A DNA stretch of 64,000 nucleotides from the NCBI GenBank assembly GCA_964645605.1, contig CAZYCE010000006.1, positions 2,981-66,980 on the forward strand, given 5' to 3'. This stretch comes from an uncultured Gammaproteobacteria bacterium. Its GTDB lineage: Bacteria; Patescibacteriota; Microgenomatia; UBA8517. Made by a program: the position numbers and the translations under genes. The notes under the pieces were generated by a model, which was not told the origin of the DNA, ran no database searches, and saw only the letters and a program-made list of their open reading frames with translations. The number at the start of each line of letters is the position of its first letter. Positions within the stretch are counted from its first letter, which is position 1. Shown piece after piece: positions 12,937 to 58,803 of this stretch.

Positions 12937-12952
12937 CATTCAATTCCAAATT

Positions 12953-23645: not shown

Positions 23646-23646
23646 A

Positions 23647-24594: not shown

Positions 24595-24604
24595 CCAATT
24601 TCTA

Positions 24605-26351: not shown

Positions 26352-27244
26352 ATAATTACAATGTTTCAGCAATAATTACAAACTTTAACGGCAAAAAACT
26401 GCTGGAAAAAAATTTACCATCGGTTTTAAGCGCTGCCAAAAATCCTGAAAATAGGATTTCTGAAATAATAGTAGTTGATGACGGTTCAAGTGACGATAGT
26501 GTTAAATTTCTTATTAAAAACTTTCCAGAGGTAAAATTGATAAGACACAAAATCAATCGAGGTTTTTCGGCGGCGGTAAATACGGGAGTCAGAATGGCTA
26601 AAGGAGATCTCGTTCTTCTTCTTAATAATGATGTAGTTCCGGAGGACAATTTTTTGGCATCGGCACTTGTTCATTTTGAAAACGAAAGAGTCTTTGCCGT
26701 CACCCTGCACGAAGCCGGATATGGATATGCAAAAGCAAAATTTTCGGCAGGATTCATAGAATTGTCTATGGGTGAAGAATCATCTATGGCTTACCCCAGC
26801 TTTTATGTAAGCGGCGGTAGCGGTATTTTTAGGAGAGAATATTGGATGAAGCTTTCCGGGATGGATGAAAAATTATTTTCCCCATTTTATTGGGAGGACA
26901 TCGATATTTGTTATAGAGCCCAGAAACGTGGCTATATAAACATGTGGGAACCAAAAAGTAATGTAATCCATAATCACGAATCAACGATTGGGAAATTACC
27001 CAAACTTCGCGTACAAAGAATTAGGGAAAGAAACCAGCTTTTGATGATATGGAAAAATATTCATAGCCCAAAACTAACCCGCAATCATGTTGTAGGAGTT
27101 TTAAGAAGGGTAAGTAAACACCCGGGCTACATAAAAATAGTATTAATGGCTCTGAGCAAGTTGGGAGTTGTACTGAAAGAGCGTAAAAAAGAGATACGTT
27201 TAAGTAAGGTGTCCGATGAAGTGATATTCATGAATTTCAGATGA
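26348..27244 (+). CDS. GT2 glycosyltransferase
   Basis: VSAIITNFNG, VVDDGSSDDS, LLLNNDVV. Confidence 0.8.
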   Translation: MNNYNVSAIITNFNGKKLLEKNLPSVLSAAKNPENRISEIIVVDDGSSDDSVKFLIKNFPEVKLIRHKINRGFSAAVNTGVRMAKGDLVLLLNNDVVPEDNFLASALVHFENERVFAVTLHEAGYGYAKAKFSAGFIELSMGEESSMAYPSFYVSGGSGIFRREYWMKLSGMDEKLFSPFYWEDIDICYRAQKRGYINMWEPKSNVIHNHESTIGKLPKLRVQRIRERNQLLMIWKNIHSPKLTRNHVVGVLRRVSKHPGYIKIVLMALSKLGVVLKERKKEIRLSKVSDEVIFMNFR

Positions 27245-28071
27245 AGAACATGGTAGAACTATCTATAGTAATAGTTAATCTTAATACTAAAGACCTGACT
27301 CTCGAATGCTTGAGATCAATCGAAAAAGAAGCGCTTGGTTTGGACTTCGAAGTACTTCTGGCGGATAACGGGAGCACTGATGGATCGGTTAAGGCTTTCG
27401 AAAAAATTAAAGAAGAAAAATATTGGAAAAATAGGTTTAGCCTAATTTTAAACGATACCAATATCGGCTACGCAAAAGCCAATAATCAAGGAATCAGAAA
27501 AGCCAAAGGAAAATATATTCTTCTTTTGAATAATGACACAATTGTTCACAAAGACGCTCTTCAAAATTTTCTAAAGTTTGCCCAAAAGACTTCCGATGCA
27601 GGAGTCGTCGGCGCAAAACTATTAAATACCGACGGAACGCTACAGATGTCCTGTTATCATTTCCCGACAATCAAAAATGCCATAAGAGAATATTGGTTGG
27701 GGCAAAAAGGTCTTTTTGAGAAATTTGCCCCTCATGAGCAAAATCCGGTTACTGTGGATTCTGTTGTGGGAGCGGCGTTTTTAATTACTCCTGAAGCGAG
27801 AAAACGTGTAGGCATTTTGGATGAACGATATTTTGCCTATTTTGAAGATATAGATTATTGCCGTGAGGTTTGGAAGCATGGTTTAAAAGTATATTATTTG
27901 CCGGACGCCGTAATTACACATTATCACGGCGCTACATTTAAGAAGCTTGCCGATGAGGAAGAAAGGTGGAAGAAATTGATTCCTTCAAGCAAGATTTACC
28001 ACGGACTCCTTAAACACTATTTGATAACTGCGATTCTTTGGTTGGGGCAAAAGAAAAACTTGAATAAGTGA
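27241..28071 (+). CDS. GT2 glycosyltransferase
   Basis: LSIVIVNLNT, LADNGSTDGS, LLLNNDTIV, YFEDIDYC. Confidence 0.8.
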   Translation: MKNMVELSIVIVNLNTKDLTLECLRSIEKEALGLDFEVLLADNGSTDGSVKAFEKIKEEKYWKNRFSLILNDTNIGYAKANNQGIRKAKGKYILLLNNDTIVHKDALQNFLKFAQKTSDAGVVGAKLLNTDGTLQMSCYHFPTIKNAIREYWLGQKGLFEKFAPHEQNPVTVDSVVGAAFLITPEARKRVGILDERYFAYFEDIDYCREVWKHGLKVYYLPDAVITHYHGATFKKLADEEERWKKLIPSSKIYHGLLKHYLITAILWLGQKKNLNK

Positions 28072-32535: not shown

Positions 32536-34032
32536 ATGAATGAAGAAGATGGCGTAGCGCCTTCGGATCCCACTACGGAAATCCCTCTTGAAACCGTGAA
32601 GAAGCGTTCCGTACGGGGGGTAGTCGTTCTTACGGGCAGGACATTCTTACTTCAGGTTATTAGCCTTGTTGCCCAGTTATTTCTTTTTGCCTATCTTAAT
32701 AAATACGAATTCGGCGTCTTTGCGATAGTCAGTGCAATTATTAACTTTTTGGTTTATTTCTCCGATATCGGTCTGGCCGCGGCGTTAATTCAGAAAAAGG
32801 AAAAACCCACGGATACGGATTTAAAAACTACTTTTCTTGTTCAACAACTTCTGGTTTTGATAATAATCGCGGTTGTTTTTCTCTTAAGCCCGTTTCTCGC
32901 TCAAAAATTTTCACTCGACCATGATGGACAAATACTTTTGTATGCACTTGCCGTGTCACTCCTTTTCTCCTCGTTAAAAGGCATTCCGTCGGTCCTTTTG
33001 GAGCGCAAGCTTGAGTTTGTGAAATTGGCTTTTCCTCAAATTCTGGAACAGGTTGTCTATAACGTTGTCTTGGTTTATCTTGCCATGAAAGGCTTCGGGC
33101 TTAAAAGTTTTACTTTTGCCGTTCTTATCCGTGGAATTGTCGGGCTTGTAACTATTTACATTCTTCAACCCTGGAAGCCGGGCATCGCGTTTTCCGGAAA
33201 AACCTTGAAAGGTCTTTTTAAATTTGGCATTCCCTACCAAATCAATACTTTTCTGGCTACTTTTAAGGATGACGGAATGACGCTTGTTCTGGGAAGTATT
33301 TTGGGGCCGGTTGGGGTAGGTGTTCTTTCATTCGCCCAAAAAATAGCCAGATTCCCATTGACATTTTTTATGGACACGGTGACCCGGGTAACATTCCCGG
33401 CTTTCTCCCGGATGCAGGACGCGAAGGACGACCTTGAAAGAAGTGTCACAAGATCAATATTTTTCATTTGCCTTTTAGTGTTCCCGAGCTTAGCCGGTAT
33501 TTCAATATTGGCTCCGATCTTGGTGCGCGTTATACCAAGATATAATCAATGGGTGCCGGCCCTTGTTCCGATCGTTTTTGTTTCGATTAATTTTGCTTTC
33601 GCCGCGGCCACAACACAACTTACGAACCTCCTTAATGCTATCGGGAAAATCAAGATTACTTTCTATTTAATGATCATGTGGACGGTACTGACCTGGGCTT
33701 TTGTTCCGTTTTTGGCTATTAAATTTAATGTGACGGGTGCGGCGATAGGATATTCACTGGTCGGAGCCTCCTCACTTGTCGCAATATTTGTGGCCAAAAG
33801 ATACGTCAACTTTTCAATTACCGATTCGGTGATAAAACCTTTAGTGGGAACAATCGTCATGAGTGTGGCGCTTATTGTAGCGCGTAGGTTTTTACCTGTA
33901 ACCCTCACCTCCTTGGAAATATTGGTGGCAATAGGAGCAGCTATTTATGTTACCTCAATGATTTCTATGGTGGGCGTCAGTCTTATTGAAGATGCTAAAA
34001 AAAGCTTCAAAACAATTTTTACGAAGAAGTAA
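32536..34032 (+). CDS. wzx: Wzx-type polysaccharide/O-unit flippase (MOP superfamily)
   Basis: About 14 TM, N-terminal region LQVISLVAQLFLFAYLNKYEFGVFAIVSAIINFLVYFSDIGLAAALIQ typical of polysaccharide biosynthesis protein family. Confidence 0.7.
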   Translation: MNEEDGVAPSDPTTEIPLETVKKRSVRGVVVLTGRTFLLQVISLVAQLFLFAYLNKYEFGVFAIVSAIINFLVYFSDIGLAAALIQKKEKPTDTDLKTTFLVQQLLVLIIIAVVFLLSPFLAQKFSLDHDGQILLYALAVSLLFSSLKGIPSVLLERKLEFVKLAFPQILEQVVYNVVLVYLAMKGFGLKSFTFAVLIRGIVGLVTIYILQPWKPGIAFSGKTLKGLFKFGIPYQINTFLATFKDDGMTLVLGSILGPVGVGVLSFAQKIARFPLTFFMDTVTRVTFPAFSRMQDAKDDLERSVTRSIFFICLLVFPSLAGISILAPILVRVIPRYNQWVPALVPIVFVSINFAFAAATTQLTNLLNAIGKIKITFYLMIMWTVLTWAFVPFLAIKFNVTGAAIGYSLVGASSLVAIFVAKRYVNFSITDSVIKPLVGTIVMSVALIVARRFLPVTLTSLEILVAIGAAIYVTSMISMVGVSLIEDAKKSFKTIFTKK

Positions 34033-35719
34033 GGCGATCATTCTTGTTTTAACAGGTACGATTGTTTGGTCTTTAGTTATGGTCAGAAACAGCCTTTGTT
34101 GGGATGCCGGATGCACGGGAGGACTTGGTTTTTGGGGGGCAAACGGACACGACGGTATTTGGCATATTGCCCTGATCAGAAGTCTTGCGAAAGGCAATTT
34201 TCAAATGCCGATTTTTTCAGGCGATAGTATCCAAAATTATCACATTGGTTTTGATTGGATACTCTCCCGGATAGTGAGGCTGACCGGGATTACGCCATCC
34301 ATCCTGTATTTTCAGGTTATTCCGCCGATACTGGCAATACTGGTGGGGGTTCTCACATATAGATTCGTTTATCTTTGGCGCAAGTCGGAAAGCGAGTCTT
34401 TGTGGGCTACATTTTTTGTATATTTTGGCGGAAGTTTCGGATGGTTGGTTTCTCTCATCAGAGGGCAAGGTTTAGAGGGGGAGAGTATGTTTTGGTCAAT
34501 GCAGTCGGTATCTACATTAATTAACCCTCCCTTTGCTCTTTCTCTTATAACGATTCTTTTGGGCCTTATTTATCTTTTAAAATATTTAAAAAATAAATCC
34601 GCAGTCAATTTTTTTCTGACGGTATTCTTTTTTGGTGTATCAATTTTTATTAAAGTGTATGCCGGTCTTTTAGTTTTGACTTCGCTGCTGGCAATTTGCA
34701 TTTGTCAAATTCTGAAAAAGAGAGACCATTCCGTTTTGGCAATTTTTCTGGCCGCTTCAGTGATATCAGTAAGTTTATTTTTGCCTTTTAATAAATCTTC
34801 AAGCGGACTGATTTCTTATAGTCCGTTCTGGTTTTTGGAATCGATGATGGCCCTCTCGGATAGATTTAATTGGCAAAAAATGTATTCGGCAATGACTACC
34901 TACAGAATGGGGCAGATTTGGGTAAAGGCAATTTTGGCTTACGGCCTATCTTTTGTAATTTTTATAGTTGGAAATTTCGGAACCAGAGTAATTGCTCTAA
35001 AGGCTGTATTGAAAAAGCCCGGAAAGCTTCTTTCGGCCGGCCCGATGGAAATATTTTTGTTTATTTTGATTTTGGCCGGAATAGTTGTTCCGACGTTTTT
35101 TGTCCAAAAAGGCACGCCTTGGAATACGATTCAGTTTTTCTATTATTCTTTGATTTTTAGCGGCATTGCCGCAGGAATTGAGGTTTCCAAACTGGTGAAT
35201 AAAAGCTCCCCGTTCAAAGGTGCTCTGATCGCAATTTTCCTGATACTTATTACCGTTCCTACCACAATTAATTCAATCGGAAATTATTTTCCCGGAAAAC
35301 CGCAATCGATTCTTCCGAAGGGGGAGGCGGAAGCATTGAAATTTTTATCAATGCAGCCTGCCGGTATTATCTTGACATATCCATTCGATGCAGATAAGGC
35401 AAAGACTGCGGTTGCTCCAAAACCTCTTTATTTATACACTTCCACTGCTTATGTTTCTGCTTTTTCCGGGCATCCTATCTATATTGAAGATCAAATAAAC
35501 CTTGATATCATGCAATATCCGTGGCATGAAAGAAGACAATTGGTGGAAAATTTTCTTAATACCCTTGATATCGACTATGCCAGGCGCTTCCTTAAGGAAA
35601 ATAACATATCATATATATATTGGGTAGGTGATCAACATGCACGGATTGGGGATTCTCAACTTGGGCTTACCAAGATTTATCAAGGAGGCGACGTTACCAT
35701 TTTTAAAGTAAATGAATAA
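33986..35719 (+). CDS. Large polytopic membrane protein, paralog family D (candidate GT-C or polymerase-like)
   Basis: GANGHDGIWHIALIRSLAKG...PIFSGDSIQNYHIGFDWIL, shared with the 42469-44316 product; at least 12 TM. Confidence 0.5.
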   Translation: MKMLKKASKQFLRRSKAIILVLTGTIVWSLVMVRNSLCWDAGCTGGLGFWGANGHDGIWHIALIRSLAKGNFQMPIFSGDSIQNYHIGFDWILSRIVRLTGITPSILYFQVIPPILAILVGVLTYRFVYLWRKSESESLWATFFVYFGGSFGWLVSLIRGQGLEGESMFWSMQSVSTLINPPFALSLITILLGLIYLLKYLKNKSAVNFFLTVFFFGVSIFIKVYAGLLVLTSLLAICICQILKKRDHSVLAIFLAASVISVSLFLPFNKSSSGLISYSPFWFLESMMALSDRFNWQKMYSAMTTYRMGQIWVKAILAYGLSFVIFIVGNFGTRVIALKAVLKKPGKLLSAGPMEIFLFILILAGIVVPTFFVQKGTPWNTIQFFYYSLIFSGIAAGIEVSKLVNKSSPFKGALIAIFLILITVPTTINSIGNYFPGKPQSILPKGEAEALKFLSMQPAGIILTYPFDADKAKTAVAPKPLYLYTSTAYVSAFSGHPIYIEDQINLDIMQYPWHERRQLVENFLNTLDIDYARRFLKENNISYIYWVGDQHARIGDSQLGLTKIYQGGDVTIFKVNE

Positions 35720-37427
35720 AATGCGCGGATTAATAAAAAAAATATCAATATTTTCAAAAAAGAAAATCTTTTGGATTATTCTTATTACGCTTTTCACTAT
35801 TCCGACATTTTCTGCATTATTAAAACCGGGCTTTTTTGCAATGCAGGATGATCTTCAGGCTTTTAGGGTCTACGAGATGGACAAATGCTTTGCGGATCTG
35901 CAGATTCCTTGCAGATGGGTACCGGATGCGGGATATAAATACGGTTACCCCCAGTTTAACTTTTACCCACCCCTTCCTTATTATATCGGCGCCGCAATGC
36001 ACCGGGTTGGAATTCAATATATAGATACCGTAAAAATACTGTTTATTTTTGGATATGTCCTTTCGGCAATTACCATGTTTCTTCTCGTATCCGAACTGAC
36101 CGGAAGCTACTGGCCGAGTTTCGTTGCATCGCTTGCCTATTCATATATTCCATATAAAGCCGTCGAAGTTTACGTGAGGGGTGCTCTTAGCGAATTTTGG
36201 GCACAAATATTCTTCCCGCTGATTTTTTGGGCGATATATAAACTGATCAAATCCGGAAAAACCAAATATCTTATTTGGACCGGTCTTTCCATATCCTTAC
36301 TTTTGACAACTCACACTTTAATGACAATGATTTTTGCCCCCGTTGCCGTGATCTGGGCGGCCTATTGGTTATTTAAGACCAAGTGGAAAAATTTGGGTAA
36401 AGTAATTGGCGGCGGAATTTTAGGATTTTGCCTCTCCGCATTTTTTATTCTTCCCGTAATCTTTGAAAAGCAGTTCGCGCACACCGAAAGTATGTTGTCC
36501 GGATATTTTGATTACCGGCAGCATTTTGTCAGTCTTTATAAACTTTTTATTTCCAGGGAGTGGGGTTATGGTTCTTCCGGTTTTCCAAATGAAAAATTAA
36601 ATCTTTCTTTGGGTATAGTGCAATGGATTGCCGGCCTGGTGATTGCACCCGTTGTGGCTTTAATTAATTTAAAAAAACATAAAAGATTTTCAATTCTTGT
36701 TTTGGGCCTTACTGCTTTGGCCCTCTTCAGTATTTTTATGATCCATATGAAATCAAGCTTCATTTGGGCCCAACTTCCCTTTTTGTGGTATTTGCAATTT
36801 CCCTGGAGATTTTTGGCCGTTTCAATATTTCTTCTTTGCTTGCTGGTTGGACTGACTGTGCATATGTTTGGAAAATACAAATATATTTTTGGTATTTTAT
36901 TGATTGTGACCTCCTTTGCCCTTACGATATCTTTTTATGTTCCTAAAGCCTGGTTTAATATCAAAGACTCGGATAAATTTTCCGGAGTCTCTTGGCAAAA
37001 ACAAATGACAATCAGTATTTTCGATTATCTGCCGATTTATGCAAAACTTCCGCCGATTACTCAGGCACCCGATTTTCCCGAGGTCATAGACGGCAAAGCC
37101 GAGTTTTCCGATTACAAAAAAGGCAGTGATTTTCAAACGGGAAATGTGAGCGTTGACTCGGAGGCGACAATTCGTTTGCCGCTTTTTGACTTTCCGGGTA
37201 TGCGGGTTAAAGCGGATGGAAAATTGGTGAACCATGGGCATGATGATTGTAGAAATGAAGAATTTTGTTTGGGACTAATAAGCTTTAAGCTTCCGAAAGG
37301 GGAGCATAAAATTGAGGTAGAATTAACTGACACTCCGGTTAGAAGAATCGGAAATTATTTGTCAATTGCCGGAGCAGCTTTCGTCGTTTGGCTTTTGATA
37401 AAAAAGAATGAAAAAAATAATAACTAA
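35712..37427 (+). CDS. Polytopic membrane protein, paralog family C (candidate GT-C glycosyltransferase)
   Basis: MQDDLQAFRVYEMDKCFADLQIPCRWVPDAGYKYGYPQFNFYPPLPYYIGA; C-terminal extracytoplasmic domain followed by a terminal TM. Confidence 0.55.
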   Translation: MNKMRGLIKKISIFSKKKIFWIILITLFTIPTFSALLKPGFFAMQDDLQAFRVYEMDKCFADLQIPCRWVPDAGYKYGYPQFNFYPPLPYYIGAAMHRVGIQYIDTVKILFIFGYVLSAITMFLLVSELTGSYWPSFVASLAYSYIPYKAVEVYVRGALSEFWAQIFFPLIFWAIYKLIKSGKTKYLIWTGLSISLLLTTHTLMTMIFAPVAVIWAAYWLFKTKWKNLGKVIGGGILGFCLSAFFILPVIFEKQFAHTESMLSGYFDYRQHFVSLYKLFISREWGYGSSGFPNEKLNLSLGIVQWIAGLVIAPVVALINLKKHKRFSILVLGLTALALFSIFMIHMKSSFIWAQLPFLWYLQFPWRFLAVSIFLLCLLVGLTVHMFGKYKYIFGILLIVTSFALTISFYVPKAWFNIKDSDKFSGVSWQKQMTISIFDYLPIYAKLPPITQAPDFPEVIDGKAEFSDYKKGSDFQTGNVSVDSEATIRLPLFDFPGMRVKADGKLVNHGHDDCRNEEFCLGLISFKLPKGEHKIEVELTDTPVRRIGNYLSIAGAAFVVWLLIKKNEKNNN

Positions 37428-39072
37428 ATATTGGCCTTATTTGATTATCTTTGGCCTAAGTTTTCTTGTCACATGGCCTCTCTTGCGGTACGGTTATTTT
37501 TCCCATCAGGACGATTTGCAGGTGATCAGAATTTTTGAGATGCGGAGATGCTTTACCGATTTACAGATTCCCTGCCGATGGGTTCCCGATATGGGCTGGG
37601 GAAACGGGTATCCTTTATTCAATTTTTATGGGGTATTTATCTACTACCTTGGTGCGATATTTAGCTATGTTTTGGGCTTTATAGGCGCTTCTAAAGCTCT
37701 TTTTTACTTATCGCTTGTTGCAGGTAGTTTTGGGGTATATTTACTCGCCAAAAGTCTTTGGGGAAAACTCCCGGGGCTGGTCTCTGCGGTTCTTTATATG
37801 TTTGCTCCTTATAAGGCCCTGGATGTCTACGTCAGGGGTGCTTTAGCCGAAAGCTTTGCTCTGGCGGTAATTCCATTTGTTTTTTACTTCGGATACAAGT
37901 TGATAGCATCAACGGAAAAGAAGAAATACGGAACTCTTTTTGCACTTTCCGTATTCATATTTATGATAACCCACAACATTATGGTTATCATTTTTTTACC
38001 GATATTAATCTGCTGGCTGGTTTACTGGTTGGCTCTGGGCAAATGGAAAGATATTAAAACAGTCGCGGTGCCTTTGGCATTGGGTGTGGGACTTTCCGCA
38101 TTCTTTTTGCTTCCGGCCTTTTTAGAAAAAAATCTTGTTCAGACGGAGTCTTTGCTTCGCTTTGAATTGGATTTTCGGGCTAATTATTTAAAATTGGCCC
38201 AGCTTTTTGCTGATCGTGTGTGGGGATACGGCACATCCATTCCCGGTCCTGAAGGGGGAATGAATTTCCAGATAGGTTGGCCGCATTGGTGGCTGGCTGT
38301 AATCTCGTCGATCCTTCTTTTTGTCTCAAAGTCCAAAAAGAGTATGAAAGTTTTGGTGTCCTTAATTCTTGCAACCTTTGCTTTGTCGGTTTTTATGACA
38401 CACAATAAATCAACTTTTATCTGGGTAAATATAAGTCTTCTTAAATATTTCCAATTTCCCTGGCGGTTTTTATCTCTTTCAATTTTTACCTCATCACTTC
38501 TCGGAGGATTTGTTGTTTCATCAGTGAAAAACAAATGGCAAATTTGTGTAACTCTTCTGATTATTGCACTGACAGCGGCTCTTAACTGGAATTATTTCAG
38601 ACCAAAAGTAATCTACCCCATAAACGATTCGCAAAAACTTTCGGGAGATCTTTGGGATCAGGAGAGGCGGGGAGCGCTTCTCGACTATCTGCCTAAAACC
38701 GCACTAGAACCGCGTGAGGCAGCTCCTGATGCCCCGCTGGTAAGATCCGGGGAAGCGATAATAACGGATTTTACCAATCGCTCAAACAGATGGGAATTTA
38801 CGGCTAATGTGACAGAGAGGGCCGAGATCGAAGTTCCTGTTTTCTATTTTCCAAATTGGAAAGTTTATATAGGGGGGGCGCCATATTCTTTTACCTACGA
38901 TAATCTTTTGGGGAGAATTTCTGTAACCCTTGAGCCCGGCAGCTATAAAGTAGAAGGAAAATTTGAAAATACGCCTTTAAGAACTGTCTCAAATGTTATA
39001 TCACTTATAAGTTTGGCAGGACTTAATGTTTACATTTTTTATGCAAAAAACCAAAAAAAGCATTCTATCTAA
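37408..39072 (+). CDS. Polytopic membrane protein, paralog family C
   Basis: HQDDLQVIRIFEMRRCFTDLQIPCRWVPDMGWGNGYPLFNFYGVFIYYLGA; same architecture as the 35712 product; 20-bp overlap with the upstream gene. Confidence 0.55.
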   Translation: MKKIITKYWPYLIIFGLSFLVTWPLLRYGYFSHQDDLQVIRIFEMRRCFTDLQIPCRWVPDMGWGNGYPLFNFYGVFIYYLGAIFSYVLGFIGASKALFYLSLVAGSFGVYLLAKSLWGKLPGLVSAVLYMFAPYKALDVYVRGALAESFALAVIPFVFYFGYKLIASTEKKKYGTLFALSVFIFMITHNIMVIIFLPILICWLVYWLALGKWKDIKTVAVPLALGVGLSAFFLLPAFLEKNLVQTESLLRFELDFRANYLKLAQLFADRVWGYGTSIPGPEGGMNFQIGWPHWWLAVISSILLFVSKSKKSMKVLVSLILATFALSVFMTHNKSTFIWVNISLLKYFQFPWRFLSLSIFTSSLLGGFVVSSVKNKWQICVTLLIIALTAALNWNYFRPKVIYPINDSQKLSGDLWDQERRGALLDYLPKTALEPREAAPDAPLVRSGEAIITDFTNRSNRWEFTANVTERAEIEVPVFYFPNWKVYIGGAPYSFTYDNLLGRISVTLEPGSYKVEGKFENTPLRTVSNVISLISLAGLNVYIFYAKNQKKHSI

Positions 39073-40702
39073 ATATTTAATCCCTTTGGTTCTAGTTTTG
39101 TCGATTCCGGCAATAAGATATCTTTTCGTCTATGGTTTTTTTGGGGTTTCCGATGATCTGCATATCGCCTGGCTTTATGAAATGGATAGGGCTGTCAAAA
39201 TGCTTCAGTTTCCGCCCCGTTTTGTCCCGGATTTAAGTTTTGGATTCGGTTACCCGCTTTTTAATTTCGTTTACCCGCTCCCGTTTTATATAGGAGAACT
39301 AATACACCTTCTGGGGTTTTCTCTGGTTGATAGCGTCAAGATGGTTTTCGGCTTATCGATTCCTTTTTCCATGTACTTTATGTACAAATTCCTAAAGGAA
39401 TTTTTGCCTGAAGAGCTATCTTTGGCCGGCTCCGTGCTCTATGTTTATGCTCCTTACCGGGCCACGGAAATTTTTGTCCGGGGGACGATAGGGGAGATTG
39501 TTGCCTTTGCGGTGGTTCCGGTTGTCGCATTGGCTTTTGTGAACCTAACCAAAGAAAAAGTGTCCGCAAAATGGATCGGAATAGCAGGTCTGTCGGTCGC
39601 TGCATTGGTTCTGTCGCACAATATTATGGCCTATATGTTCATGCCTTTTGCCCTTCTTCTTTTGGTTTCCAGGTTAATATTTATAACAAAAAACAAAAAG
39701 CAGGCAGTTATCCGCAGTTTTTCCGGCATTTTTTTGGGACTTTTGGCATCCGGATATTTTTGGTTTCCTGCAATTTATGAAAGCAGACTAATGCATTATG
39801 ATACGGTTTTTAATTTCTACGACCACTTCCCCACATTGAAGCAATTTGTTACACCTTACTTTGGTTATGGAGCTTCGGTTCCGGGGCCATACGACACGAT
39901 GTCATTTTATTTTGGTCTGACGGGAATCGTGGTGGCAGCTATTGGTCTGATCCTTTTTGTCTTAAAACATAAAAAGTTTTCTCCGGAGGAGAAAGTCTAT
40001 TTTGGTTGGGGAATGGTGATACTTTTGGTGAGTATATTTATGATGAATTTCCGCTCTGCGTTTTTGTGGAGAAACCTGCCTCTTTTGCCGTATTTTCAGT
40101 TTCCTTGGAGATTTCTGGCAATGGTAGTCTTTGCTATTCCGATACTCCTTGTGGGCTTTTCCAAATATAAATTCGGGAAAATAGCCTCGTATATTGTTAT
40201 TATCGGGGCAATTGTGCTCAATTTTAATTATTTTAAAACCAGCGAATATCTGGGAAGGGACGACGCATATTACCTTAATAGATATATTCCCGTTCCAGTT
40301 GCGTCAGAAGAATATAAAAAAACATTGGAAGAATACTTGAGGCTGCCTGCGGGCACCGAGGTAAGGCCCTCGGATAATTTTCCCAGAGCCTATGCGGAAG
40401 TTCCGGCAATATCCCAAGTAGAAGAAATAAATGCATTGGATGCAAAAATCACCACCAATTACGGAGAAAGCTTTATACTCAATTACAGTAAGTACTATTT
40501 TCCGGGTTGGTTTGCTAAGATAGATGGGAAGAGTGCTGAGGTAACGGCCGGGAAACCTTATGGCCAGATCGCCTTGTCTGTTCCGGCGGGTACACATACG
40601 GTTGAAGTTTATTACAGTGAATCAACCTTGAGGTTGGTATTTGATTTGATTTCGCTGGTTGGCATCGGGACCGCCGTATTTCTTGTATTAAGGAAAAAAT
40701 GA
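39026..40702 (+). CDS. Polytopic membrane protein, paralog family C (most divergent copy)
   Basis: VSDDLHIAWLYEMDRAVKMLQFPPRFVPDLSFGFGYPLFNFVYPLPFYIGE; 47-bp overlap with the upstream gene. Confidence 0.55.
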   Translation: MFTFFMQKTKKSILSKYLIPLVLVLSIPAIRYLFVYGFFGVSDDLHIAWLYEMDRAVKMLQFPPRFVPDLSFGFGYPLFNFVYPLPFYIGELIHLLGFSLVDSVKMVFGLSIPFSMYFMYKFLKEFLPEELSLAGSVLYVYAPYRATEIFVRGTIGEIVAFAVVPVVALAFVNLTKEKVSAKWIGIAGLSVAALVLSHNIMAYMFMPFALLLLVSRLIFITKNKKQAVIRSFSGIFLGLLASGYFWFPAIYESRLMHYDTVFNFYDHFPTLKQFVTPYFGYGASVPGPYDTMSFYFGLTGIVVAAIGLILFVLKHKKFSPEEKVYFGWGMVILLVSIFMMNFRSAFLWRNLPLLPYFQFPWRFLAMVVFAIPILLVGFSKYKFGKIASYIVIIGAIVLNFNYFKTSEYLGRDDAYYLNRYIPVPVASEEYKKTLEEYLRLPAGTEVRPSDNFPRAYAEVPAISQVEEINALDAKITTNYGESFILNYSKYYFPGWFAKIDGKSAEVTAGKPYGQIALSVPAGTHTVEVYYSESTLRLVFDLISLVGIGTAVFLVLRKK

Positions 40703-41913
40703 AAAAATTACTGGTTTTAGCAATTGCTTTAAGGGTTTTGGTTGGCGCCTTTTTGTTTCACCCCGACATAAAAACATTTAACTTTCAGGCATCTTTTCTT
40801 AAAAAGGGTGTATTTAATATTTATTCCTACCTGGTGGAAAACAAACAAACCCTTCCCCTTAAAGAAGAGTTTGTTTACTTTCCGCTTACATATTTTACCC
40901 TTGGTGCTTATCAGGCAATAGCTTCTCCCGTATTGGGGAGTGGGTTTGACGCATGGCTTGGTAACGCCGACTCAAACGGCGTCGTGCAGGACCCAAATAT
41001 TTTTAAATATTTACTTGTTTTGAAATTGCCATACCTAATTCTTGATATCTCGATAGCATTTTTACTGTTGAAATACTTTGATGACAGAAAGATGGGTAAA
41101 AAAGCTTTTACTATCTGGCTTTTTAATCCATTCACAATTTTTATTATTTATGCGTTTGGGAATGTTGATATCTTCCCGGTTTTCATTACCTTGATTTCCT
41201 TGCTCCTTATTAAGAAAGAAAAATTACTTTGGGCTGCTGCGGCACTGGGAATTGCGGCAGGATTCAAACTGTATCCGCTTCTCTTTGTTCCGTTCCTGGT
41301 ACTGGCCGGTAAAAACCCTAAAGAAAAAGTGCTTCTTGGTGCGATACCTTTAGCCGTATTTGCGGCAATATCGGTTCCGTTCCTGTCGCAGGCGTTTCTC
41401 CGGTCCACTCTGATTTCAGGGCTTACCACGAGAATATTTAACCCGGGTTTTAGCGTTGGTTTTGGCGAATCAATAATTGTAGGACTGCTTCTTTTTTCTG
41501 CACTGTTTTTCGGTGCATGGCTTACGGACAAAAAACCGAACATGTTCAATTACTGGATAGTAATACTTTTGATAATATTTTCTTTCGCACATTTTCATAT
41601 TGCCTGGCTTCTATGGATTGCGCCGCTGGTCGTAATTTTAGTAGTTAAAAAACAGTCCTTTTCCTGGCCAGTCTTTTTATTATCTCTTGCCGCAGTAGTC
41701 ATACCTCTTCTTTACCAGGACAGATCTATGACAATTTCGTTATACAGGGCTTACAGCACATGGTTCGATCTTTTGCCGACTCCCTTTAACGCAATTCAAA
41801 GATTTTACGACCCCTACAATTTACAAAGTATTTTACATACGCTTTTCGCCGGCGGTGCCTTGACTATTTGTTATCTAATATTTAAAAAAGAAGAAAAAGT
41901 AAAAACATCATGA
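40699..41913 (+). CDS. Polytopic membrane protein, GT87/DUF2029-like mannosyltransferase candidate
   Basis: 404 aa, about 10 TM; LKLPYLILDISIAF...FNPFTIFIIYAFGNVDIFP...GFKLYPLLFVP pattern resembles PimE-type GT-C enzymes. Confidence 0.45.
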   Translation: MKKLLVLAIALRVLVGAFLFHPDIKTFNFQASFLKKGVFNIYSYLVENKQTLPLKEEFVYFPLTYFTLGAYQAIASPVLGSGFDAWLGNADSNGVVQDPNIFKYLLVLKLPYLILDISIAFLLLKYFDDRKMGKKAFTIWLFNPFTIFIIYAFGNVDIFPVFITLISLLLIKKEKLLWAAAALGIAAGFKLYPLLFVPFLVLAGKNPKEKVLLGAIPLAVFAAISVPFLSQAFLRSTLISGLTTRIFNPGFSVGFGESIIVGLLLFSALFFGAWLTDKKPNMFNYWIVILLIIFSFAHFHIAWLLWIAPLVVILVVKKQSFSWPVFLLSLAAVVIPLLYQDRSMTISLYRAYSTWFDLLPTPFNAIQRFYDPYNLQSILHTLFAGGALTICYLIFKKEEKVKTS

Positions 41914-42518
41914 AAAAAATGGTCTGGTTAACAACTGTTTCGGTGCTGCTACTGGTATTCGTGGCACCGGCGGTACTTGCCTCATCTCTTAAAATGATTC
42001 CGGTTAACAATCAACCGGGCTATAATCCAAATTTGAGACTCTCTATTTATAAAATTAGAGATTTCTCGCAAAAAATTGTAGCCAAAGAAGAAAACCTTAC
42101 CGCAATCGGAACCTCAATCAGAAATCCTAATCTGAAAAACAAAACAGACGTAATTTTTACTTTATATGACAACTCAGGCAGCGTGATAAGAACATCTGTC
42201 CTTAATGGTCAGAATCTGGAGGATGGATCTTTTGTCAAATTCGTTTTTCCGGTCATTCCCGACTCCTTGGGAAAAGAATACTTATTTACGATAACTTCTC
42301 CGGGAGCAGGACCTGAAGAAACGATTGAGGTGTTTATTATGAATGCCCCTGAGGCATCCTCAGGCATTATAGAATATACTTACGAAGGTGAAACCCACCC
42401 CGGAGGAATTCCACTGGTTGCCTACAGTCAACCAGGGAGCAAGTTGGAGACTATAAAAAATGTTTATTCTAATTGGCTTTCCAGACTTCTGCATCTCCGT
42501 TCTCAAAAATCAGAGTAA
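41910..42518 (+). CDS. Hypothetical secreted protein
   Basis: Signal peptide MKKMVWLTTVSVLLLVFVAPAVLASS; 202 aa; 3' end overlaps a convergent gene by 50 bp. Confidence 0.45.
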   Translation: MKKMVWLTTVSVLLLVFVAPAVLASSLKMIPVNNQPGYNPNLRLSIYKIRDFSQKIVAKEENLTAIGTSIRNPNLKNKTDVIFTLYDNSGSVIRTSVLNGQNLEDGSFVKFVFPVIPDSLGKEYLFTITSPGAGPEETIEVFIMNAPEASSGIIEYTYEGETHPGGIPLVAYSQPGSKLETIKNVYSNWLSRLLHLRSQKSE

Positions 42519-44316
42519 AACCCAGATTTATCGGATTGACTTTGGGACTCAAAACTTTTGGAAAATAAAGGATATCCGCCTTGGTTTCGGAGAAAGCGCT
42601 TTTAACCTCGGTAGCATTTTCGCTTGAGAAGATAACCTTCTTGGTTTCCAGTCTGGATTTCCAATCGTAGCCCATGATATCAACCTGCTCATAGTCGTCA
42701 AAATATGTTCTTCTTGCCGACAAGGCCGATACATAAGAGGTATCAAACCAATCCCAAATGTTTGGAGTCGATCCGCCTAAATTGAGGTATTGATCATAAG
42801 GGGGAGTCAACAGGATTGCATTTTCCTGAGTATTCTCCTTTACGTAGTTAAGTGCTTCAATTTCACCATGGGAAATTTTGGCAAAAGCAGGCCTGGAATA
42901 AAATTCGTGCAGGAGTCCAACCTGCGTTGGAATCATTAATATTATCAATATTGGTCCGATAAAATATTTTGCTTTTTTGGGAAATTCTGCAAATTGAACC
43001 CCTGCAAGTATTCCAAAAAATAGAACAAAATATTGCAGGAACTGGCTGGTGTTGCTGGCAACACCTTTTTGGATGAAGAGCATGGGGAGTATTAACGAGA
43101 AAGAAATAATCAATTTGATAATTGGGTGTGTTTTAATAAATTCTTTTAGGCCAATAAATCTCATACCGAGATTTCCAAAAAAGAAAATAATGAAAGCAAT
43201 ACCTTCGTATTCCAATATCCTTAAAATAGATTTGATGCCTCCTCGGGCAACATAAAATTGTCTACGAAGCTCCAAATCCAGCCAGTTTAACCTTGAAGGT
43301 TCCACAACCATTGTTCTTATATACCACCAAGGTTGAAAAATGAGGAAAGCTGTTGAGCCCGAAGTATTGGGAAAATAAAGTACAATTGATAAAATTCCGC
43401 CTACAAAAGTTAAGATTAATGTTTCGAGCTTTTTTTCTTTAATAAACTGCCAAAGGCCGGTAAAGCCGAGTGCGGTAAGAGCTACAACTCCTGCGTAGAC
43501 CTTAAAGCTTACTAAAGTCCCAAATAGTATTGTGCAAATTATAAATAATATGTTTTTTCCTTTTCCTTTTCCTTTTTCCTCTTTAAATAAAATATAAAAA
43601 TATACTGCGGCAAGAATCATAAAATCGGAAATAATTTGAGGCGGGTTGCCGCCGGCACTCTGCGGTTGGGTTGCCCAAAAGATGCTTTCGCCCCCGATAG
43701 TTTTACCCTTGATGTAAGTAACAATGTATCCGAAACTACCCGCGAAATATGTGAAGATTGTTGCCCAGATAGGTGCAGTTTTGTTCTTGGACAATTTTTT
43801 GGTCAAAAAATATGCAGAAGCGCCTAAAAAGATTGAGTAAATGAAAGGAAATATTCTGAAATATAGATCGGCATTATCGATGGGGAGGTATTTACTGGCC
43901 ATTGCCGGCAAAATATCACTGAAGAAATGATAGTTCACGAGTTTTTCGCCGGCGAAAATGGGGTTTTGAAACGGCCAGCCTCTTTTAATTTCCTCCATGA
44001 GTGCAATATGCCATGTCCCATCGTGTCCGTGTGCGCTCCAGAAAAGTAAATCTCCGTTTTGGACAGTTCCGCTCGGAGAGATTACTGCCAGTTGTCCGGC
44101 AATTCCCAAGGAAAAGACGGCAAGAACCAGAAATGTTTGAAGATTAAACTTAACTTTAATTTGCTTGACGGTCTTTACTGCGGGTTTGGCACCGAAAATG
44201 ATTGCAAGAAGTACTATCGGAATAATCAAAAATGGGACATTGAGCACAATTAGAATGTAGGAAATAAGAGTAAGGCCTGCAAAACCCACAATTCCTCCCA
44301 TGAGTATTTTTTCCAT
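42469..44316 (-). CDS. Large polytopic membrane protein, paralog family D
   Basis: LLFWSAHGHDGTWHIALMEEIKRGWPFQNPIFAGEKLVNYHFFSDIL, matching the 33986 product; 615 aa. Confidence 0.5.
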   Translation of the reverse strand: MEKILMGGIVGFAGLTLISYILIVLNVPFLIIPIVLLAIIFGAKPAVKTVKQIKVKFNLQTFLVLAVFSLGIAGQLAVISPSGTVQNGDLLFWSAHGHDGTWHIALMEEIKRGWPFQNPIFAGEKLVNYHFFSDILPAMASKYLPIDNADLYFRIFPFIYSIFLGASAYFLTKKLSKNKTAPIWATIFTYFAGSFGYIVTYIKGKTIGGESIFWATQPQSAGGNPPQIISDFMILAAVYFYILFKEEKGKGKGKNILFIICTILFGTLVSFKVYAGVVALTALGFTGLWQFIKEKKLETLILTFVGGILSIVLYFPNTSGSTAFLIFQPWWYIRTMVVEPSRLNWLDLELRRQFYVARGGIKSILRILEYEGIAFIIFFFGNLGMRFIGLKEFIKTHPIIKLIISFSLILPMLFIQKGVASNTSQFLQYFVLFFGILAGVQFAEFPKKAKYFIGPILIILMIPTQVGLLHEFYSRPAFAKISHGEIEALNYVKENTQENAILLTPPYDQYLNLGGSTPNIWDWFDTSYVSALSARRTYFDDYEQVDIMGYDWKSRLETKKVIFSSENATEVKSAFSETKADILYFPKVLSPKVNPINLGFTLIFENGDAEVWKAN

Positions 44317-44340: not shown

Positions 44341-45756
44341 ATGAGAAGGAAACTTTGGTTGGTTTTGGCCGGAATTGTTCTTCTCGGTCTGGCAATTAGA
44401 ATTTATAAAATTCAGGCTCTACCTATGTATGGTGACGAGCTTACAATGGTTTACGATATTTATTCGATAGAAAAAACCAGTATGGATTCTACCGGGCAAA
44501 AGCTTCCCCTGACTTTTAGGATGGGTGCCGGCCGCCCTGCCGGATATATTTATTTTTCTGTTCCTTTCGTGGCAATTTTCGGTCCGACCGTTTGGGGTGT
44601 CCGGTCTCTTTCCCTCCTTTCCGGGTTAGGAATCATTGTTTTAATGTACTTTTTGGGTAAGAAACTTTTTGGTGATAAAGTCGGCATAATTGCAAGTTTT
44701 TTGGCTGCGGTTTCTCCATGGGATATTTATCTAAGCCGCGGCGGTTTTGAAGCCCATTTTGCCCTATTTTTGGCGCTTCTCGGGGTTACAATGTTCCTGT
44801 ATAAAAAATATGTTTGGTGGGCAATTGCCTGGGGAATAGCAATTTTAACCTATCCGACGTTCAAGTTAACTCTGCCGGTTCTTTTCCTGGCGCTTGTCTG
44901 GTTTAGCGGCTTTAAGAAATTGGCAAAAGACAAAGTTTTTATTATCGGCCTTGTCGTACTTTTACTTTTCGGCGGAGTTACCCTAAGGGAAACTTTCAGG
45001 GCGGGCAGTGAACAAAGATTTTTAAGCATCAATATTTTTTCAGATAATAATCTGACTCAAAACATCATACAAAAGGTGAACTACGAAAGAACTATTTCAA
45101 CATTGCCCGAGATCATTAAGCCAATTTTTATAAACCGTGAGATCGAATATTCGAGGGTGCTTTTGGATAATTATGTTAAAAACATTTCTCCCGACTTTTT
45201 GATTTTAAGAGGGGACGGAAATCCGAGACATAATCCCGGAGAAATGGGAATGCTTTTCCTGGTAGACTTGCCCCTGATACTTATAGGGTTAATGTATCTC
45301 CTGAAGGAAAGAACGAAGGAGTCGGTTCTACTTTTGGCTTGGGTTTTAATTACACCACTTGCCACAATGTTTTTACCCGAGGCGCACGCTCTTAGAAACA
45401 ATCTGATGCTCCCACCACTTCTTTTAATCATCTCGTATGCCCTCACCAGGATTCCAAGAAAGGCTTGCTACGTCGCCGGAGGACTGATTGCACTTCAACT
45501 AATCTATATTCTGGTACGCATCTATACAATTGCTCCTGCAAAATTTGCCTCTTTCTGGTCAGCTGAAGCGAAAACAGAAGCTCTTTTGGCGATGGATAGG
45601 GTAAACAGCGGGCAAAAGGTGGTCTTGAATGTTAATAAAATCGACAACATTGAGTATGCCTATGAGGTTTATGCAAGACTTGATCCCCGTTTGGTAATTT
45701 CTCAATATGGTAAATTACCAAAAATTTTCGGTAATGTCACTATTACCGACAGATAA
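44341..45756 (+). CDS. GT-C-fold membrane glycosyltransferase (ArnT/PMT-like)
   Basis: LPMYGDELTMVYDIYSIEKTSMDSTGQKLPLTF first-loop motif; about 11 TM. Confidence 0.6.
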   Translation: MRRKLWLVLAGIVLLGLAIRIYKIQALPMYGDELTMVYDIYSIEKTSMDSTGQKLPLTFRMGAGRPAGYIYFSVPFVAIFGPTVWGVRSLSLLSGLGIIVLMYFLGKKLFGDKVGIIASFLAAVSPWDIYLSRGGFEAHFALFLALLGVTMFLYKKYVWWAIAWGIAILTYPTFKLTLPVLFLALVWFSGFKKLAKDKVFIIGLVVLLLFGGVTLRETFRAGSEQRFLSINIFSDNNLTQNIIQKVNYERTISTLPEIIKPIFINREIEYSRVLLDNYVKNISPDFLILRGDGNPRHNPGEMGMLFLVDLPLILIGLMYLLKERTKESVLLLAWVLITPLATMFLPEAHALRNNLMLPPLLLIISYALTRIPRKACYVAGGLIALQLIYILVRIYTIAPAKFASFWSAEAKTEALLAMDRVNSGQKVVLNVNKIDNIEYAYEVYARLDPRLVISQYGKLPKIFGNVTITDR

Positions 45757-45768
45757 TAATCTCTGAAA

Positions 45769-47403
45769 TTATTTTGGTGAGACGATGTAAAAGGCGGGTG
45801 AGCCATTTGATATGTATATTTTTTGAAGAATTTCTCCGTCTTTGAGTCCGTCTACCGGGAAACTCCAAGGACTTCCGATGAAAAGTACACCCTTTTTGCC
45901 TTTATCCAAAGTCCAATTAATATGGCGGAACGTATATTTGCCGAATTTATAGTAGGGTTCATCTCTATCTGAACCCAGATATTTCTGTTCCGTCTGATAG
46001 ATTGCGGGATCGTACTTTAAATAGAAAAGTACATAAAGAAATGGGTTACTGACCATATTTGGGGCATCAACTCCACGTCTCTGGTCGAAAACAATTTCAC
46101 TGTATTCATTTTGATGGTCCTTTACATAAAAAACGGCTTCTCTCCAACCTTCATCAAATGATTCACCTTTGTCTCTTGGAAAGTCCGAGGAGATGATAAG
46201 AAAAGCATGGATGAAGACTATTAATACCACTGCGCCGGAAACGCAAGCAATTAGATATTTCAGATAAGCTTTGTCGATCTTCTTGAAAAATTTATAAATT
46301 TCAATTGCGCCAAGTGTGGTAAAAAATATTAAGATAGGGAAAAGATGTAGGAGACGTCCTGTATGCTTTTGGTTGTTTGTTAGGGAATCGGGCAAAATTC
46401 CGATCAAGGCCCATACTGTGAAAATTCCCTTGTGCGGAATTTTATTTTTAATAAAGCTTACAATTCCGGCGATAAAGAATGGGATTTCAAAAACATAAAA
46501 TATTCCAAGTCCGATAGGGCCGGGCATTGTTGCTTCCAAGCCATTGAAGAACAAAAATCCGGGATCCAAATAACTTAAATACCGTTTGATCCAGAAGAAA
46601 AACAACATAGGTATATCGGAGACTGAATTAAAGTACTTCAATATTACATAGCGGCTGAATTCGATGTCGTTACCGATGAATACCATTTGCATTCTTGTTC
46701 CCGCTCCCTGGAATAAGGTTGTATAAACAAGCGGAAGCCCTAAAACCAGACAAACCGCCCCAAAAGCAATAATAACTCTCCAATTCTTTTTAAGTTTGGA
46801 AAAACTGACGATGAATGCACCTATTAAAAACGGAGGAATAAAAAGTCTTGGTGCGAAAGACGTGTACATTGTTAATACAAAGAAAAACGCCGAAAGAACT
46901 GCCCAAATAATTTTTCCGTCTAACATTTTTATGAAAAACCAGACCCCAAGTAGAATAAAAAGACTTGCAATTATTGCTTCGTAGGCAAATCTTGAGTAGA
47001 AAATATGCCAGGCGGAAATTGCCAGAAAGAAACTGCCGACCAGGGCAATATCTTTTCTTTTGAATACAGATAATAGGAACAGAAAAAAGATGGGGATGGA
47101 GAGCGTCCCTATTAACGCATTTGGAAACCTGACTGCAAAATCGGTAAGTCCGAATAATTTTATTGAAGGAACCATGAGATAGACGGGGAGAGGGTTTTTA
47201 TAATCACCTATTGATTCAAAAGTTAGCGGCATAAACTTACCGTGTTCGTCTTTGCCGGTTTCCAGGATTGAATAAGCAGAGTAGCCAAAAGAAATTTCAT
47301 CACCGGTTAAGCTTGGAGGATTTACGGTTATTTTATAAAACCTCAAAAATCCCCCAATCAGGGTAATTAGTATGACCAGTATCAACAAAGTTCTTTTTTT
47401 CAT
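45769..47403 (-). CDS. GT-C-fold membrane glycosyltransferase, paralog family A (PMT_2/ArnT-like)
   Basis: PSLTGDEISFGYSAYSILETGKDEHGKFMPLTF; C-terminal DG..AF motif (SNGSPAFYIVSPK). Confidence 0.65.
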   Translation of the reverse strand: MKKRTLLILVILITLIGGFLRFYKITVNPPSLTGDEISFGYSAYSILETGKDEHGKFMPLTFESIGDYKNPLPVYLMVPSIKLFGLTDFAVRFPNALIGTLSIPIFFLFLLSVFKRKDIALVGSFFLAISAWHIFYSRFAYEAIIASLFILLGVWFFIKMLDGKIIWAVLSAFFFVLTMYTSFAPRLFIPPFLIGAFIVSFSKLKKNWRVIIAFGAVCLVLGLPLVYTTLFQGAGTRMQMVFIGNDIEFSRYVILKYFNSVSDIPMLFFFWIKRYLSYLDPGFLFFNGLEATMPGPIGLGIFYVFEIPFFIAGIVSFIKNKIPHKGIFTVWALIGILPDSLTNNQKHTGRLLHLFPILIFFTTLGAIEIYKFFKKIDKAYLKYLIACVSGAVVLIVFIHAFLIISSDFPRDKGESFDEGWREAVFYVKDHQNEYSEIVFDQRRGVDAPNMVSNPFLYVLFYLKYDPAIYQTEQKYLGSDRDEPYYKFGKYTFRHINWTLDKGKKGVLFIGSPWSFPVDGLKDGEILQKIYISNGSPAFYIVSPK

Positions 47404-48482: not shown

Positions 48483-48484
48483 AT

Positions 48485-49969: not shown

Positions 49970-50009
49970 TTTACATGACGTTTTGAAGCTGGTAACATTG
50001 AGGTAATAT

Positions 50010-58802: not shown

Positions 58803-58803
58803 A

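Follow-up and report, generated by a model that had tools for sequence, protein, structure and literature searches.

A conserved module of three paralogous GT-C membrane proteins in a Microgenomates glycan biosynthesis island

We analyzed three consecutive genes, here named copies A, B and C, in a 64,000-nt stretch of contig CAZYCE010000006.1 (hereafter the window, meaning the whole stretch), in which they lie within an island of glycan biosynthesis genes. These genes encode polytopic membrane proteins that are paralogous over their full length and that constitute an old conserved three-gene module. It appears somewhat probable to us that the three proteins are anciently diverged, non-redundant extracytoplasmic glycosyltransferases (GTs) of the GT-C type that use polyprenyl-phosphate-sugar donors to build or decorate an envelope glycan. 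The genome that carries them is Woesebacteria-like (Microgenomates, Patescibacteria).

Three overlapping paralogs with a long shared history

All three open reading frames (ORFs) are encoded on the forward strand. Copy A, a PF10131-like GT-C membrane protein, spans positions 35712-37427 (571 aa) and is followed by copy B, a PF10131 GT-C membrane protein (37408-39072; 554 aa), and by copy C, the most diverged of the paralogs (39026-40702; 558 aa, or 553 aa if translation starts at the ATG at 39041). If each gene is taken to begin at its first ATG, the overlap is 20 bp between A and B and 47 bp between B and C, exactly as a sequence-only reading of this DNA had stated. With the alternative start of C the latter overlap becomes 32 bp, and this start fits the length of the closest cluster of C orthologs, which is 553 aa. 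At its start, A shares 8 bp with the preceding gene, and the gene starting at 40699 overlaps the stop codon of C by 4 bp (ATGA). ORFs therefore overlap at each junction, leaving no intergenic DNA across positions 33986-42518. Such tight overlaps would be compatible with translational coupling of A, B and C. Scans for promoters and terminators yielded no enrichment over shuffled sequences and do not define the limits of the operon.

Pairwise BLASTP confirmed that A, B and C are paralogs with a similarity far beyond chance: A and B share 39% identity (E = 4e-118), A and C 30% (E = 1e-67) and B and C 31% (E = 2e-63), in each case over the full length of the proteins. The sequence-only reading had recognized three paralogous proteins from a set of shared motifs, all of which are indeed present, and the similarity extends well beyond the N-terminal motif to which it might have been confined. 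Copy C, for which a diverged function had been suggested, is indeed a diverged copy, with 30-31% identity to A and B and without a cysteine pair that is found in both.

We then evaluated the distribution of the module by scanning one genome per species; 532 relatives were returned and 80 loci were kept. The order A-B-C was found in 50 of these 80 species-representative loci, from Woesebacteria, Daviesbacteria and other Microgenomates (ABC in 39 loci, ABCD in ten, and ABC with an additional distant copy in one), and the junctions overlap in nearly all A-B-C loci. Fourteen loci presented a single copy, four were rearranged (ACB in two and ACS in two), and the remaining 12 showed other, incomplete patterns, mostly because they are truncated where the contig ends. 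Other Patescibacteria possess one copy at the same position of the island. Each copy has its own set of orthologs at 55-90% identity, as opposed to 30-39% between paralogs; orthologs of A were recovered at 64-100% identity, and the names of the source organisms are Woesebacteria, Microgenomates and Patescibacteria. On a scaffold of Woesebacteria GWC2_33_12, three genes stand in this same order, each being the best match of one copy only (64% identity for A, 61% for B and 62% for C). Many of the related metagenome-assembled genomes (MAGs) are recorded under the title "uncultured Gammaproteobacteria bacterium" despite having the gene content and the relatives of Microgenomates/Patescibacteria, and these labels are probably placeholders or wrong.

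Classification with hidden Markov models combined with a neighbour-joining tree yielded monophyletic clades for A (61 members), B (63 members) and C (60 members). Two further clades were defined: clade S (16 members), nearly all from single-copy loci, and clade D (12 members), found after C in Daviesbacteria-like loci. The divergence of the three copies is ancient. The tree is midpoint-rooted with short deep branches, and it does not settle in which order A, B, C and the single-copy forms branched off. The sequence-only reading had described a tandem triplication. The three tandem paralogs are real, but the duplications did not occur in this genome, as each copy has its own orthologs and the gene order is widely shared. 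Clade D was sister to A in the neighbour-joining tree and follows C in ten loci (L016-L018, L023, L024, L036, L039, L041, L046, L047); the group of these loci includes MAGs named Daviesbacteria, and a GT87-like gene is sometimes found between C and D.

The copies also occur in gene fusions. Among the 120 best homologs of A, 38 are proteins of about 800 aa in which an N-terminal GT2 domain is joined directly to the first transmembrane helix (TM1) of A. This GT2-A fusion was found in five of the 80 loci (L033, L045, L051, L078 and L080) and also in proteins P0259-P0358. In the window, the ortholog of the fused domain is a cytoplasmic rhamnosyltransferase-like GT2 gene (27241-28071, forward strand), hereafter GT2f. 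It shares 50-57% identity with the first 280 aa of these fusions and matches the rhamnosyltransferase model TIGR01556 with 66 bits, below the cut-off. Orthologs of GT2f lie immediately before A in six loci and, in total, precede A or are fused to it in 11 loci. Another locus presents an in-frame fusion of B and C with a short basic linker (L052, 10001-13285; protein P0361), and other lineages carry two to six copies of the family in one polypeptide. Fusions of family copies, or of one copy with another GT-C-like half, were seen in P0362, P0371, P0385, P0510, P0419 and P0496; P0371, with six matched stretches, is a 3,329 aa fusion protein from a high-GC organism. The multi-copy fusions hint at a physical association of the paralogs, but they could instead be frameshift artefacts of assembly or gene calling. 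The GT2-A and B-C fusions fit a topology in which both termini are cytoplasmic, as well as a functional linkage of A to a cytoplasmic GT2 that builds chains.

Family, fold and conserved residues

PF10131 ("PTPS_related") is the single Pfam family that was matched by all three proteins, over roughly residues 70-407. It is the best profile match of each copy, yet a marginal one: B (27.1 bits) and C (45.0 bits) exceed the gathering cut-off of 26.4 bits and A (22.2 bits) falls below it. Only the first ~320 of the 621 profile positions are matched, corresponding to TM2 to about TM10 of the proteins, and the C-terminal half of the profile is left unmatched. Copy C also matches PMT_2 below threshold (21.6 bits, cut-off 26.1), and none of the three copies matches the GT39/PMT or PMT_2 families (PF02366, PF13231) above the cut-off. 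When 71 relatives were scanned singly against Pfam, PF10131 was matched by 53 (E ≤ 0.01), PMT_2 by 22, YfhO by nine, DUF6541 by nine and STT3 (PF02516) by two, weakly. We take PF10131, PMT_2, YfhO and STT3 to be members of the same GT-C clan. Two candidate families had been put forward from the sequence. The PTPS-related one corresponds to the best match, and YfhO (PF09586), only a weak relative, was not supported: A, B and C have no match to it at E ≤ 0.1, and it matched only the nine relatives mentioned above at E ≤ 0.01 (best E = 1.4e-8). No NCBIfam model was found for A, B or C, and many orthologs carry the NCBI name "6-pyruvoyl-tetrahydropterin synthase-related protein". We identified 2448 homologs of B; the family is large, and a library clustered at 50% identity contains 19,655 of its representatives if the threshold is E ≤ 1e-3 and 6,649 if it is E ≤ 1e-30. 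PF10131 belongs to the Pfam GT-C clan CL0111, and a 2021 analysis still gave its function as unknown (PMC7801869).

An AlphaFold model of B, built on an alignment of 138 sequences, was obtained with high confidence (predicted local distance difference test [pLDDT] 92.6; predicted TM-score 0.92). Searching the PDB with this model using Foldseek returned 18 matches at E ≤ 1e-3, all of them GT-C proteins: yeast and human STT3, archaeal AglB, PglB, ArnT and AftD. EmbC, AftA, AftB, ALG12, ALG3 and DPY19 were found with weaker E-values. The predicted fold class of B is therefore clearly GT-C, with no close relative among solved structures. The sequence-only reading had suggested a GT-C fold on the basis of an acidic loop after TM1 and had called for a structure prediction. 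The model of B bears out the fold, and an invariant acidic residue (D35 of B) does lie directly after TM1. Among solved structures, the folds nearest to B are those of STT3, AglB, PglB and ArnT (Foldseek E = 1e-5 to 1e-3, probability 1.0), in which the first outer loop has an acidic residue as well. The C-terminal regions differ: in STT3, AglB, PglB and ArnT the periplasmic domain stands at the free C-terminal end, whereas in A, B and C a small outer beta-sandwich is followed by an extra terminal TM helix. The beta-rich domain and terminal helix had likewise been anticipated, and in the model of B they correspond to strands 444-519 and a helix at 523-552.

The PMT_2/GT39-like proteins of the island are remote homologs of the family. 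Here, hhalign aligned the family with the PMT_2 paralogs of the window with a probability of 97.5% (E = 7.6e-12), and the segment VRGALAE of B aligns with the PMT_2 motif SRxxxE, so that an R-x-x-x-x-E motif is matched in the second outer loop. Both groups also present an acidic pair (DD or DE) after TM1. Their similarity is, however, undetectable by BLAST, and the PMT_2/GT39-like proteins differ in C-terminal architecture and form separate paralog families.

We derived a topology for B by combining its modelled helices with hydrophobicity, with the positive-inside rule and with the evidence of the fusions. Each of the three proteins would possess ~12 membrane helices with cytoplasmic N- and C-termini. 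In B, TM1 (residues 9-26) is predicted to be followed by an outer loop of 50 residues (EL1; 27-76), which contains D35, D36, a short helix, the cysteine pair C48/C56, R57, D61 and the motif GYPxFNF. This loop was placed outside because of the basic residues at the N-terminus and the fusions to a cytoplasmic GT2. About ten helices connected by short basic inner loops would follow, then the outer beta-sandwich between the last two helices, a last TM helix (523-548) and a basic C-terminus on the inner side. When modelled separately, the outer C-terminal domain reached a pLDDT of 79.8 (above 90 for its beta part). Its best partial matches at low root-mean-square deviation are accessory beta-sandwich domains of glycoside hydrolases, a weak hint that it might bind carbohydrate.

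To identify conserved positions, we retained the columns in which at least 90% of the sequences have the same residue in all three clades, based on 213 family members from 80 genomes. None of the 41 resulting columns falls in the inferred inner loops and 29 fall in outer loops or in the outer domain; the proposed topology is supported by this avoidance of inner loops. The invariant polar residues (B numbering) are D35, R57, D61, K96, R143, E148, H189, E240 and QFPWR 349-353, among which D35, R57, R143, E148, H189 and QFPWR are invariant across the 213 members (for D35, with the exception of one gap). D36 is conserved in more than 90% of them. Outside EL1, R143/E148, H189, E240 and QFPWR 349-353 are all located in other outer loops. 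The acidic pair corresponds to residues 46-47 in A (35847-35852), 35-36 in B (37510-37515) and 43-44 in C (39152-39157), and the EL1 cysteine pair to C59/C67 in A and C48/C56 in B. Copy A has a second cysteine pair (C513/C519) in its C-terminal outer domain, and C contains no cysteine in the entire protein.

The cysteine pair of EL1 was found in all orthologs of A (49/49) and B (50/50), in 53 of the 66 other members and in none of the 48 orthologs of C. In the latter, the first position is V, A or T and the second is P (46 sequences) or A (two sequences). This distribution suggests that the pair is probably ancestral and was lost once in the lineage of C. The C clade nevertheless keeps D35, R57, D61, K96, R143, E148, H189, E/D240 and QFPWR in its 48 orthologs. 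We detected 13 clade-specific columns, conserved within clades and differing between them, seven of which are in EL1, and C was the odd one in eight of the 13. Copy C is therefore probably not a decaying gene but an active enzyme whose substrate loop has been remodelled, because every invariant polar residue has been kept despite the loss of the cysteine pair. The sequence-only reading was right that C lacks the pair, but this is a trait of the whole clade and, with the invariant residues retained, decay is not indicated.

Proposed function and alternative explanations

Our favoured interpretation can be outlined as follows. In the cytoplasm, the products of the GT2 and GT4 genes of the island, including GT2f, would assemble the backbone of a glycan that possibly contains rhamnose, and the adjacent Wzx flippase would then export it. 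Each of A, B and C would then transfer a sugar from a polyprenyl-phosphate-linked donor to the growing envelope glycan at the outer face of the membrane. The island encodes three GT2 proteins similar to DPMS, GtrB and ArnC, a context consistent with the use of such a donor, which these DPMS/GtrB-like GT2s would make. The three copies would be co-produced from an operon of overlapping genes and would carry out three different steps; we propose distinct steps because the clade-specific residues cluster in EL1, beside the putative catalytic aspartate. The analysis itself shows the paralogy, the GT-C fold, the family match, the pattern of conservation, the old origin, the synteny and the fusions; the donor, the acceptor, the distinct specificities, the translational coupling and any complex formation are features that we infer for A, B and C.

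This scheme resembles known systems in part. Patescibacteria are generally regarded as monoderm. In monoderm bacteria, wall polymers are glycosylated by three-component systems made of a GT-A, a flippase and a GT-C (PMC8035078). In the CsbB/GtcA/YfhO-type systems of Firmicutes, the GT-C acts on a wall polymer outside the membrane, a GT2 makes the C55-P-sugar that it uses, and a flippase serves it (PMC8035078). Genes of all three kinds occur in the window, but the flippase is of the Wzx type rather than the GtrA type, and three to four tandem paralogs are present instead of one gene with its GT2. In gene organization, the scheme also recalls the mycobacterial embCAB operon, which is compared below.

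Several observations weigh against the proposed role. Sequence searches of the PDB returned nothing meaningful, with a best E-value of 0.16 for C alone and of 1.3 for the family profile. The matches of the B model have modest TM-scores (0.40-0.49, with a range of 0.26-0.49 for STT3, AglB, PglB and ArnT) and 11-16% identity, and the best of them are oligosaccharyltransferases, not monosaccharide transferases. The outer C-terminal domain has no significant fold match in the PDB. We found no experimentally characterized member of PF10131 in the literature, nor anything specific on this family or on GT-C enzymes in Patescibacteria. For this reason, membership in PF10131 is uninformative on the substrate, and the donor and the acceptor are guesses from context. 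The fusion to A does not identify the donor either, because the GT2 in the fusion is a chain-building one and not a polyprenyl-phosphate-sugar synthase. Finally, the cytoplasmic placement of both termini comes from the positive-inside rule and the fusions, and D35 is assigned to the active site by its position in the sequence and by analogy.

An unlikely alternative, although one that is largely compatible with separate transferase activities and differs mainly by physical association, is that A, B and C form an obligate hetero-oligomeric GT-C complex in the manner of PMT1-PMT2 or EmbA-EmbB. The three proteins would then work as one machine, possibly a processive polymerase or an assembly line, perhaps docked to the cytoplasmic GT2. 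The fixed order with overlapping junctions in 50 of the 80 loci is consistent with this, as are the GT2-A fusions, the in-frame B-C fusion (P0361) and the multi-copy fusions (P0362 and P0371). There is also a precedent in mycobacteria, in which embC, embA and embB are three tandem paralogs encoding GT-C arabinosyltransferases and EmbA and EmbB form a heterodimer. Emb structures, including 7bvc and 7bvf, are among the Foldseek matches, ranking 20th or lower (E = 2e-3 to 0.2). The likeness is one of organization only, namely a tandem triple of paralogous GT-C genes that differ in their acceptor steps in envelope glycan synthesis: the Emb proteins are larger (~1,050-1,090 residues in solved chains), belong to a different Pfam family and have no detectable close sequence relationship to A, B and C. 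Against such a complex, the fusions of tandem copies are rare and open to the artefacts mentioned above. In addition, 14 loci have a single copy and 12 have a fourth copy, and this variation in copy number means that the stoichiometry is not fixed. No copy looks purely structural, because all three keep the full set of catalytic-type residues.

A more specific version, which we consider unlikely, is a heterotrimeric GT-C machine specific to Microgenomates and docked to the cytoplasmic GT2 that many genomes have fused to A. It would couple the cytoplasmic synthesis of the chain to steps outside the membrane in which a wall glycopolymer specific to Patescibacteria is elaborated or attached. If true, this would represent a fixed multi-enzyme assembly line, in place of three loose decorating enzymes, and provide a first function for PF10131, a large family (no fewer than 6,649 clusters at 50% identity and E ≤ 1e-30).

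It is less likely still that at least one copy is a new oligosaccharyltransferase, ligase or polymerase that moves a Wzx-flipped polyprenyl-diphosphate oligosaccharide en bloc to a protein, to peptidoglycan or to another polymer. STT3, AglB and PglB head the list of fold matches (E = 1e-5 to 8e-4), the family gene lies directly upstream of Wzx in single-copy genomes, the GT2 and GT4 genes of the island could build a lipid-linked oligosaccharide, and no Wzy_C-type ligase or polymerase was recognized in the window. However, ArnT, AftD, AftA and AftB score nearly as well, STT3 (PF02516) is matched weakly by two of 71 relatives, and two membrane proteins encoded in the window (U577 and U615, described below), one of them beside Wzx, could fill the role of polymerase or ligase. 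Moreover, the motif WWDxG of STT3, AglB and PglB is absent in 213/213 members (searched as WWD[YFWN]G), and WW[DE] is absent from A, B and C. Membership in the STT3-type oligosaccharyltransferases was therefore rejected.

The tandem arrangement and the cysteine pair missing from C would also be expected if the genes resulted from a recent, lineage-specific triplication with redundant or decaying copies, C being in the process of losing its function. Nothing else speaks for this scenario, which we regard as very improbable and have rejected: orthologs are closer to one another than are paralogs, each of the A, B and C clades unites Woesebacteria and Daviesbacteria members as a monophyletic group, and the invariant polar residues are all kept in the 48/48 orthologs of C. 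Finally, a role in pterin metabolism as relatives of 6-pyruvoyl-tetrahydropterin synthase draws on the historical Pfam/NCBI family name only and is virtually ruled out by the polytopic GT-C fold, the location in a glycan biosynthesis island and the inclusion of PF10131 in the GT-C clan (PMC7801869).

The surrounding island and its significance

The module is one of several arrays of GT-C paralogs in the island. At least 15 recognizable GT-C genes, totalling 23.2 kb, were found between positions 17866 and 54768 (~37 kb). A second expansion, of PMT_2/GT39-like genes, is located at 44341-54768 (genes starting at 44341, 48395, 50010, 51656 and 53152 on the forward strand and at 45769 on the reverse strand); five of these genes are mutual paralogs with 25-34% identity. 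It includes a second tandem GT-C triple (50010-54768; 32-34% identity), which also has overlapping junctions. A further group of PMT_2 genes is found at 17866, 20377, 28073 and 31098.

Immediately upstream of A, the gene U577 (33986-35719, forward strand) encodes a polytopic membrane protein of 577 aa with no Pfam match, whose 615 aa paralog U615 (42469-44316, reverse strand) shares 29% identity with it (E = 5e-81). No relationship between U577/U615 and A, B and C was detected with hhalign. Neither protein has an assigned Pfam family, but a GHDGxWH motif close to the N-terminus is conserved in both. Either might be the polymerase or ligase that is missing from the island. U577 follows Wzx in most related loci, as it does in the window, where the Wzx/MOP-family flippase of lipid-linked glycans is encoded at 32536-34032 on the forward strand (PF13440, E = 8.8e-56; NCBIfam MOP flippase below the cut-off). 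Downstream of C lies a homolog of GT87/PIG-M/MptA_B-like GT-C mannosyltransferases (40699-41913, forward strand; PF09594 34.1 bits, PF05007 28 bits), whose ortholog in locus L002 matches PF26314 (MptA_B_family). The next gene (41910-42518, forward strand) encodes a protein of 202 aa that begins with a hydrophobic segment and for which neither Pfam nor NCBIfam gave a significant match; its orthologs in Woesebacteria loci (43-82% identity) are conserved after the GT87-like gene.

The genes that might provide the substrates are located upstream. The GT2 at 21934-22722 (forward strand) is of the polyprenyl-phosphate-sugar synthase type, its best PDB sequence matches being DPMS (5mlz; E = 7.6e-16), GtrB (5ekp) and ArnC, and it is a candidate source of the lipid-linked donor. 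Similar GT2 genes, with DPMS, GtrB and ArnC as their closest solved relatives, are found at 17174-17884 and 14514-15665, and the protein encoded by the latter has a GtrA_DPMS_TM domain. Five more GT2 genes and one GT4 gene lie at 22746-28071, of which three are rhamnosyltransferase-like with scores below the cut-off. The genes rmlA, rmlB-like, rmlC and rmlD for dTDP-rhamnose synthesis (9517-13849, forward strand; Pfam NTP_transferase, GDP_Man_Dehyd/Epimerase, dTDP_sugar_isom and RmlD_sub_bind) likely supply sugar to the island. The RmlB-like dehydratase (10452-12374) is 640 aa long; the epimerase/dehydratase match covers residues 1-308 only, and the C-terminal ~330 residues have no Pfam match.

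In single-copy genomes, the genes are ordered as DPMS-like GT2, PMT_2, family gene, Wzx, U577 and cytoplasmic GTs. Most loci carry one to four copies at this position between PMT_2 and Wzx, and Wzx adjoins the family in most of them. In most of the Daviesbacteria-like and single-copy loci, a GT2 of the 21934 type is found one gene upstream of the family, the intervening gene being a PMT_2 similar to that at 29573. The closest relatives of the window instead present the copies after the cytoplasmic GT2 genes or after Wzx-U577.

Three further features of the window deserve mention. A DHH/DHHA1 phosphoesterase gene (19434-20417), unexpected in a glycosylation island, is located between two PMT_2 genes, as it is in many of the related loci. 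Most related loci also have, where the island starts, a counterpart (38-62% identity) of a 388 aa protein that has no Pfam match (15990-17156, reverse strand). Finally, type IV secretion genes are found at 57048-61179 on the reverse strand, encoding a TraG/VirB4-like P-loop ATPase of 584 aa and a 430 aa protein that contains a T4SS pilin/TrbC domain, and they adjoin a gene for an M23 peptidase (56427-57047). Type IV secretion in Patescibacteria is the subject of a separate study (PMC12102498).

The proteins described here were already catalogued, with a Pfam family and an NCBI name, and they do not constitute a new kind of system. We did not find the A-B-C module, the clade-wide loss of the cysteine pair in C or the GT2-A fusion described in the literature, and we regard them as refinements of what is known for this superfamily. 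Despite the very small genomes of Patescibacteria, 23 kb of this window are devoted to at least 15 GT-C genes, within 37 kb that also hold GT2/GT4 genes and a Wzx flippase. The conservation of A-B-C across Woesebacteria and Daviesbacteria points to an elaborate and chemically undescribed surface glycan, which would be of importance to these mostly uncultured and possibly host-attached bacteria. The invariant residues (D35, R57, R143, E148, H189 and QFPWR in B), the GT2 fusion partner and the orthologous groups thus provide a handle on an uncharacterized GT-C family.

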